NCBI RefSeq assembly: GCF_003991155.1
Contig: NZ_CP031293.1
Strand: one strand, 5' to 3'
DNA length: 64,000 nucleotides
From: Escherichia coli
GTDB taxonomy: Bacteria; Pseudomonadota; Gammaproteobacteria; Enterobacterales; Enterobacteriaceae
A model generated the notes under the pieces. The model was not told the origin of the DNA. It saw only the letters and a list, made by a program, of their open reading frames with translations, and did no database searches. The translations under genes and the position numbers were made by a program. Below, piece by piece: positions 3,769 through 3,879 of the stretch; the stretch's first letter is position 1; every line of letters starts with the position of its first letter.

Positions 3769-3879
3769 AAATCGCGGAAGGGATGAAACAACAGCGCCTG
3801 ACGGCGCTGTGTCTGGCATGCCTGCAATCCGGGAAACCGGACCAGGAAAAAACTTGCAGGCCATAACAGTATCTACACA

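Follow-up and report, generated by a model that had tools for sequence, protein, structure and literature searches.

The probable split sigma70 junction promoter of an IS621 copy inserted between yacH and lpdA in Escherichia coli

The two ends of an IS621 copy in E. coli very probably form a split sigma70 promoter, the junction promoter Pjunc, which is assembled when the element circularises; we put the probability of this reading at about 0.9. The element lies in a stretch of 64,000 nucleotides from contig NZ_CP031293.1, which was analysed as a whole and is called the window below. Architecture, boundaries and conservation of the feature were observed in the window and in related elements, and for promoter activity and the RNA we draw on published work on IS621 (PMC11208160). 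In the integrated state, the -10 hexamer TATTAT of the left end is preceded by the hairpin of a REP sequence in place of a -35 hexamer. Excision as a circle would bring the two ends together at the CT core, and this joining would set TTGCAG at -35 with a spacer of 17 nt, so that a sigma70 promoter forms. Transcription is expected to start about 7 nt downstream of the -10 hexamer, around position 2610, and to yield the bridge RNA; read-through would also give the recombinase mRNA. As the spacer and the -10 hexamer would double as the donor recombination site (ACAGTAT-CT-TGTAT), integration is predicted to split the promoter again and to turn expression off.

The junction-promoter mechanism is real, ordinary and already known, as it was published in 2024 for IS621 itself. 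In IS110-family elements, a split promoter explains why expression of the bridge RNA and the recombinase is restricted to the excised circle. Confining expression to the circle spares the host some damage, and this control belongs to the biology on which bridge-recombinase genome-editing tools are based. For the window, the analysis brings no new biology and results in a clean annotation of an IS621 variant copy between yacH and lpdA. It also shows that a published regulatory mechanism was recoverable from raw sequence in the initial annotation. Our small additions are the register-exact conservation of the -35 motif in approximately 40 species, evidence of DNA-level selection at the stop codon and the wobble base, and a REP-hairpin terminator look-alike at insertion sites of the IS621 clade. 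These additions support the published models and open no new questions.

The IS621 copy and its insertion site

The element is IS621, a bridge-RNA recombinase element of the IS110 family, and its insertion site is a REP sequence of the yacH-lpdA spacer. It occupies positions 2596..3874 of the plus strand (1279 bp including the right CT core) and is 100% identical over 1279 bp to many E. coli chromosomal copies annotated as 'IS110-like element IS621 family transposase'. Subtraction of the CT gives the published IS621 length of 1,277 bp, which excludes the core (PMC11208160). Likewise, the right end (RE, 3769-3874, 106 bp) and the left end (LE, 2596-2787, 192 bp) add up to 298 bp, equal to the published RE-LE of IS621 (PMC11208160). 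The recombinase gene (2788..3768, plus strand, 326 aa) was assigned from the list of open reading frames and from two Pfam domains, DEDD_Tnp_IS110 (PF01548, 1.5e-24, residues 8-152) and Transposase_20 (PF02371, 1.1e-25, residues 196-278). Terminal inverted repeats are absent, with 8/30 matches between the ends.

The boundaries were confirmed by the empty site. When the flanks 2450-2595 and 3875-4019 were joined with a single CT, the resulting sequence was found with 100% identity over 291 nt in four E. coli genomes, in which it is the uninterrupted yacH-lpdA spacer. Since the empty site contains the CT only once, the element comprises 1279 bp with one copy of the CT core and is seated at a CT core. 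The left core dinucleotide, which is the crossover site, lies at 2594..2595 on the plus strand and the right copy at 3873-3874. Insertion into the REP sequence was precise, with no duplication beyond the CT core. The window contains no second IS621 copy, as the right-end terminus AACAGTATCT matches exactly once. Of the 5,426 E. coli genomes searched, 2,244 contain sequence matching the element, at a median of 5 places per genome. Copies at least 99% identical to that of the window are found in only 41 of 2,252 records.

Upstream of the element, the yacH open reading frame (656-2509, DUF3300) shares the orientation of IS621 and stops 87 nt short of it. Its product has a run rich in histidine and aspartate and a motif of about 30 amino acids (...ASPEQRQAVREKMQTNPQNQQRR...) that is repeated several times in tandem. 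In the right flank, two sub-threshold Rfam matches were recorded, naRNA4 at 3915-3958 (37.8 bits compared with a gathering score of 59.5) and ES036 at 3868-3911 on the minus strand, the latter overlapping the right junction of the element. Both are small RNA families derived from REP sequences, and the matches reflect the REP cluster that holds the insertion.

The joined ends and the bridge RNA

The circle junction was built by script from the last 60 nt and the first 60 nt of the element. The joined ends read TTGCAGGCCATAACAGTATCTTGTATTAT with a spacer of 17 nt, and the exact RE-LE junction of the circle is ...ACAGTATCTTGTATTAT.... The candidate -35 hexamer TTGCAG (3854..3859, plus strand) agrees with TTGACA in 3/6 positions and is followed by the 15 nt gccataacagtatct, which reach the right end at 3874. 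The candidate -10 hexamer TATTAT (2598..2603, plus strand) agrees with TATAAT in 5/6 positions; it also falls within the donor right arm and within the T-rich tract that follows the REP hairpin. Relative to the inferred transcription start at 2610, the two hexamers occupy -35..-30 and -12..-7. Within the right-end portion of the spacer (3860..3874, plus strand) are ACAGTAT (3866-3872, -23 to -17), which is the left arm of the donor, and the CT core (3873-3874, -16/-15), and an A-tract lies directly upstream of the -35 hexamer (3847..3852, plus strand, -42 to -37). A right-end -35 and a left-end -10 are hence parted, across the core, by a spacer within the range of 16-18 nt.

The initial annotation had placed TTGCAG at 3854-3859 and TG-TATTAT at 2596-2603 and had derived the order TTGCAG-17 nt-TATTAT, all of which is exact to the base. 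Its description of the pair as near-consensus was overstated. The -35 hexamer reaches only 3/6 and the pair a total of 8/12, so that the junction, when scored by script under the rules of our promoter scan (at least 4 matches per hexamer and 9/12), falls below the threshold. The same scan found no site at threshold in the linear sequence 2400-4100. The TG that had been pointed out just upstream of the -10 hexamer is present (2596..2597, plus strand) and belongs to the donor right arm; its register of -14/-13 is not that of an extended -10. The extended -10 reading was rejected, as it needs T at -15 and G at -14, and these positions are TT here.

The proposal that a split sigma70 promoter is joined in the circle and drives the left-end RNA is supported, since it was tested on IS621 itself (PMC11208160). 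The circular form of IS621 was reported to reconstitute a sigma70 promoter across the RE-LE core (Durrant et al. 2024, Nature, PMC11208160). Small RNA-seq with an RE-LE plasmid revealed a left-end RNA of approximately 177 nt starting at the predicted sigma70-like promoter, and the experiment covered IS621 and five orthologues (PMC11208160). Moreover, removal of the -35 box abolished IS621 recombination unless the RNA was supplied in trans (PMC11208160). The right end supplies the -35 of the junction promoter and the left end its -10, and the IS621 minicircle is believed to have no other tnp promoter (PMC12288879). The window holds the same element with the same promoter and a REP target, and its copy is a minor sequence variant of the published one (PMC11208160).

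Comparable promoters have been described in the family. Pjunc of IS492, ISEc11 and ISPpu10 likewise combines a right-end -35 with a left-end -10 and exists in the circle only, and the native promoter of these elements is weak or absent, as in IS621 (PMC12288879; bioRxiv 10.64898/2026.03.19.712850). The hybrid promoter of ISPpu10 is strong. ISPpu9, another IS110 member, differs from IS621 in having none (PMC12288879). Thus, the feature is not universal in the IS110 family.

Outside this family, abutted ends form a strong transient promoter in circle-forming members of the IS3, IS30 and IS256 families (e.g. IS911, IS30), where it boosts the transposase in the intermediate only. Those elements have DDE transposases and inverted repeats, and their joined ends are parted by a few bases of flanking DNA. 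In IS621, by contrast, the joining is done by a DEDD/serine recombinase and is precise to the 2-nt core, and what is transcribed is primarily a guide RNA.

A contiguous RE-LE junction, as expected of a circle or a head-to-tail dimer, occurs in none of 5,426 complete E. coli genomes. This is expected for a transient circle and is no direct support for it either. Eleven records cover at least 80% of the RE-LE query, all of them by two-piece matches. The one that we inspected (H26; L079, NZ_CP051222.1, 1328-3978) contains two full IS621 copies in tandem and in the same orientation, which are 93 bp apart and sit in neighbouring REPs between prpB and prpC; the other ten genomes have similar two-piece matches.

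The predicted bridge RNA covers 2610..2787 of the plus strand (178 nt compared with the canonical 177 nt), with its start inferred from the published RNA. As neither the exact hexamers nor the RNA sequence are given in the main text of the Durrant paper, the 5′ end was placed at 2610 from the lengths of the left end (191 nt) and the RNA (177 nt) and from an alignment with canonical IS621. The segment 2611-2787 is predicted to fold into a 5′ stem-loop and, after it, two further stem-loops that contain internal loops (-64 kcal/mol, z = -4.1). The putative guide of the target-binding loop, ATCGGGCCT (2659..2667, plus strand), is the same as the left target flank plus core (2587-2595). That of the donor-binding loop, ACAGTATC (2733..2740, plus strand), is the same as the right-end terminus (3866-3873). 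Predicted fold and guide segments together are those of the published bridge RNA architecture. The assignment rests on this architecture because no family of Rfam 15, searched with a permissive E-value, matched the left end, the only hits being the sub-threshold naRNA4 and ES036 in the right flank. On the right side of the target, the flank (3875-3879) reads CT-ACACA compared with CT-ACGCA predicted by the guide TGCGTAG (2684-2690), so that the insertion site has one mismatch to the element's own guide.

The reference for canonical IS621 was the element encoding protein WP_000399648.1, which NZ_CP051222.1 carries as the tandem pair between prpB and prpC. The recombinase of the window differs from this protein in two residues (positions 251 and 279). 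The left end of the window copy is one base longer (192 nt compared with 191 nt), and the apical hairpin of the target-binding loop (2668-2682) reads TTAGGTTTTCAACC in the window and TTGGGTTCTAACC in L079:1328-1519. The position of the published RNA 5′ end (2610) is T in the window copy and A in the canonical one. The -35 hexamer, the spacer and the -10 hexamer are identical in both, and no variant base touches the promoter hexamers. Because of this identity of the promoter sequence, we infer that the copy behaves like canonical IS621.

A further structural element was noticed in the right end. The GC-rich palindrome ACAGCGCC-TGAC-GGCGCTGT lies just 3′ of the recombinase stop codon and would form a hairpin (3791..3810, no strand assigned). 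The relatives with a long right end (L004, L010) retain it with another loop, and the short-right-end clade has no equivalent. This hairpin might be a stop for transcription running round the circle.

Circular and integrated configurations in IS621 and its relatives

A scan for related recombinases in one genome per species gave 78 loci with 33-83% protein identity. Ends were defined in multi-copy genomes as the points where copies stop being alike, and no promoter reference was used. Defined in this way, the left end always begins with TGTAT... after CT and the right end always finishes with ...AACAGTATCT. The ends in all loci were then found by these terminal motifs, yielding 42 distinct junctions. 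As the motifs contain the -10 and not the -35, only conservation of the -35 counts as an independent observation. Wherever the ends of relatives were recognisable, CT stands before the left end, in a few cases as GCT or ACT. The donor sequence, ATAACAGTATCT followed by TGTAT, is almost invariant from Enterobacteriaceae to relatives in Betaproteobacteria and Desulfobacterota with approximately 50% protein identity. Target flanks vary by host, each of which offers its own REP family, and always end in CCT, GCT or ACT (loci L001-L078).

With spacers of 16-18 nt allowed, the circle offered a stronger best -35 than the integrated flank did at 37 of 40 distinct sites. Mean best matches were 4.45 for the circle and 2.23 for the flank (Wilcoxon p 2.8e-8, a value that overstates the support, as the relatives are not phylogenetically independent). 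At the fixed register, flank -35 scores were 0-3/6. The presumption that an integrated copy has no good -35 is accordingly correct in general and fails by match count at the present locus, where the flank provides TGCGCA-16-TATTAT and both configurations tie at 8/12. Here the circle stands apart from the integrated state by its critical TTG and by a spacer of the optimal 17 nt, not by the number of matches.

This tie is the starting point of an alternative that we regard as unlikely, namely that there is no real on/off switch in this copy, that the integrated element is transcribed about equally, from TGCGCA with its spacer of 16 nt or by read-through from yacH, and that circularisation adds little. 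The position of yacH, which points towards the element and ends 87 nt upstream, is compatible with read-through, as is a hairpin after yacH that has no T-run on the plus strand. Against this, the integrated -35 is devoid of the TTG that matters most, its spacer is 16 nt long, and it lies inside the stable REP hairpin at 2570-2593, which together with the T-rich left end resembles a terminator. Moreover, the equivalent hybrid junction of ISPpu10 terminates transcription (bioRxiv 10.64898/2026.03.19.712850).

The REP-type hairpin of the target site (2570..2593, plus strand) stands directly left of the element and forms a terminator-like site with the CTTGTATTAT that follows it; a terminator scan flagged GCCCGATGCGCAAGCTTATCGGGC and then CTTGTATTAT. 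The left flank folds with -13.8 kcal/mol, and the stem ends 2 nt before the left end. Similar structures were found at the insertion sites of relatives. In 39 distinct sites, the 40 nt left of the element had a mean of -15.4 kcal/mol compared with -6.4 kcal/mol for the right-end sequence that takes their place in the circle, and a hairpin of -8 kcal/mol or lower ended within 4 nt of the left end in 33 of them. The T-tract at the left terminus is short and interrupted (TGTATTAT). The integrated left junction looks like a terminator made of a REP hairpin and a T-rich tract. In ISPpu10, termination at the hybrid left junction has been demonstrated experimentally, and circularisation removes the terminator and creates Pjunc (bioRxiv 10.64898/2026.03.19.712850). 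The hybrid terminator of that element consists of the target REP hairpin followed by the element's T-rich tract, and the window appears to have the same layout (2570-2593 plus CTTGTATTAT).

These overlaps allow a wider, tentative picture, which we consider possible and somewhat less than even in probability. Across the IS621 clade, the ten bases CT-TGTATTAT could serve at once as core and donor right arm, as the -10 of the circle and as the tail of the integrated terminator, so that the element would flip between 'insulated and silent' and 'promoter on' according to its upstream context. Competition of the recombinase-bridge RNA complex with RNA polymerase would then provide negative feedback, and the A-tract would compensate for the weak -35. 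The donor site spans -23 to approximately -8 of the promoter, and this overlap makes competition between the recombinase complex and RNA polymerase conceivable. None of the papers covered by our literature search discusses such competition at the donor site.

Conservation of the -35 region

Returning to the junction promoter, the independent evidence from the relatives is the position of the -35. Of the 42 distinct junctions, 41 have TTG at a distance of exactly 15 nt to the right end, and 71% have TTGAC. The -10 reads TATTAT in 29 junctions and TATTGT in 10. Between the -35 block and the almost invariant donor block ATAACAGTATCT lie three variable bases. The -35 occurs in three coding contexts. 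In IS621 and its nearest relatives it follows the stop codon at a distance of 83-95 nt, in Enterobacter-type elements it is located within the open reading frame, and in most others it overlaps the stop codon. In the stop-overlapping group (T-TGA-C), the stop codon is always TGA and never TAA or TAG. The codon before it ends in T in 33/33 cases while encoding Ala, Val, Ser, Cys, Thr, Gly or Tyr. An invariant TGA and a wobble T despite seven different amino acids point to selection acting on the -35 DNA motif rather than on the recombinase protein. Coding sequence alone was rejected as the cause of TTG conservation by this pattern of stop codon and wobble base.

The block TTG(AC) might nevertheless be kept for coding of the recombinase C-terminus and its stop, or for recognition of the donor DNA, its resemblance to a -35 being no more than a likeness. 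The location of the TGA stop inside the hexamer in most relatives and the conservation of the neighbouring ATAACAGTATCT as donor site would fit this explanation, which we nonetheless consider very improbable. A coding role is difficult to reconcile with IS621 and its nearest relatives, in which the hexamer keeps the same end distance well past the stop codon, and with the constant TGA and wobble T in the overlapping elements, where the amino acid varies. The three variable bases that part the hexamer from the donor block speak against a role in recognition. Furthermore, a 22-bp donor without the -35 region was sufficient for recombination when the RNA was supplied in trans (PMC11208160), which argues that the -35 region is not needed for DNA recognition.

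Taken by itself, the sequence pattern is weak evidence and only suggestive. Matches of 8/12 quality at a spacer of 17 nt number 129 in the 128,000 strand-positions of the window, about 1 per 1000 positions. A junction-spanning match is consequently expected by chance in roughly 3% of cases (about 28 registers, spacer 17) or in about 7% if spacers of 16-18 nt are allowed. Inside the element, CTCCCA-18-TATCAT (2713-2742) scores equally. A stricter pattern of TTG plus a 5/6 -10 occurs with 2.3e-5 per position, a criterion that was chosen after seeing the sequence. The promoter reading rises above chance because the motif is conserved in relatives and because of the published experiments. Least probable of all is a fortuitous pairing of TTGCAG and TATTAT without promoter function, with expression arising from yacH read-through or an internal promoter: the chance rate of 3-7% per junction, the equally scoring internal site and the lack of a hybrid promoter in ISPpu9 (PMC12288879) speak for it, but TTG is held at one end distance in 41/42 junctions across three coding contexts, and RNA-seq and the -35 deletion have been published for IS621 (PMC11208160).

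Within its clade, the IS621 -35 hexamer TTGCAG is among the weakest, as most relatives have TTGACN with 5/6 matches. An A-rich tract directly upstream of the -35 was seen only in enterobacterial elements with a weak -35 (TTGCAG, TTGCGT, TTGCAT), the relatives that carry it being L001, L003, L004, L009, L010 and L031. In the TTGACN relatives, the position of the A-tract is occupied by coding sequence. The A-tract at 3847-3852 may act like a proximal UP element and compensate for the weak TTGCAG.
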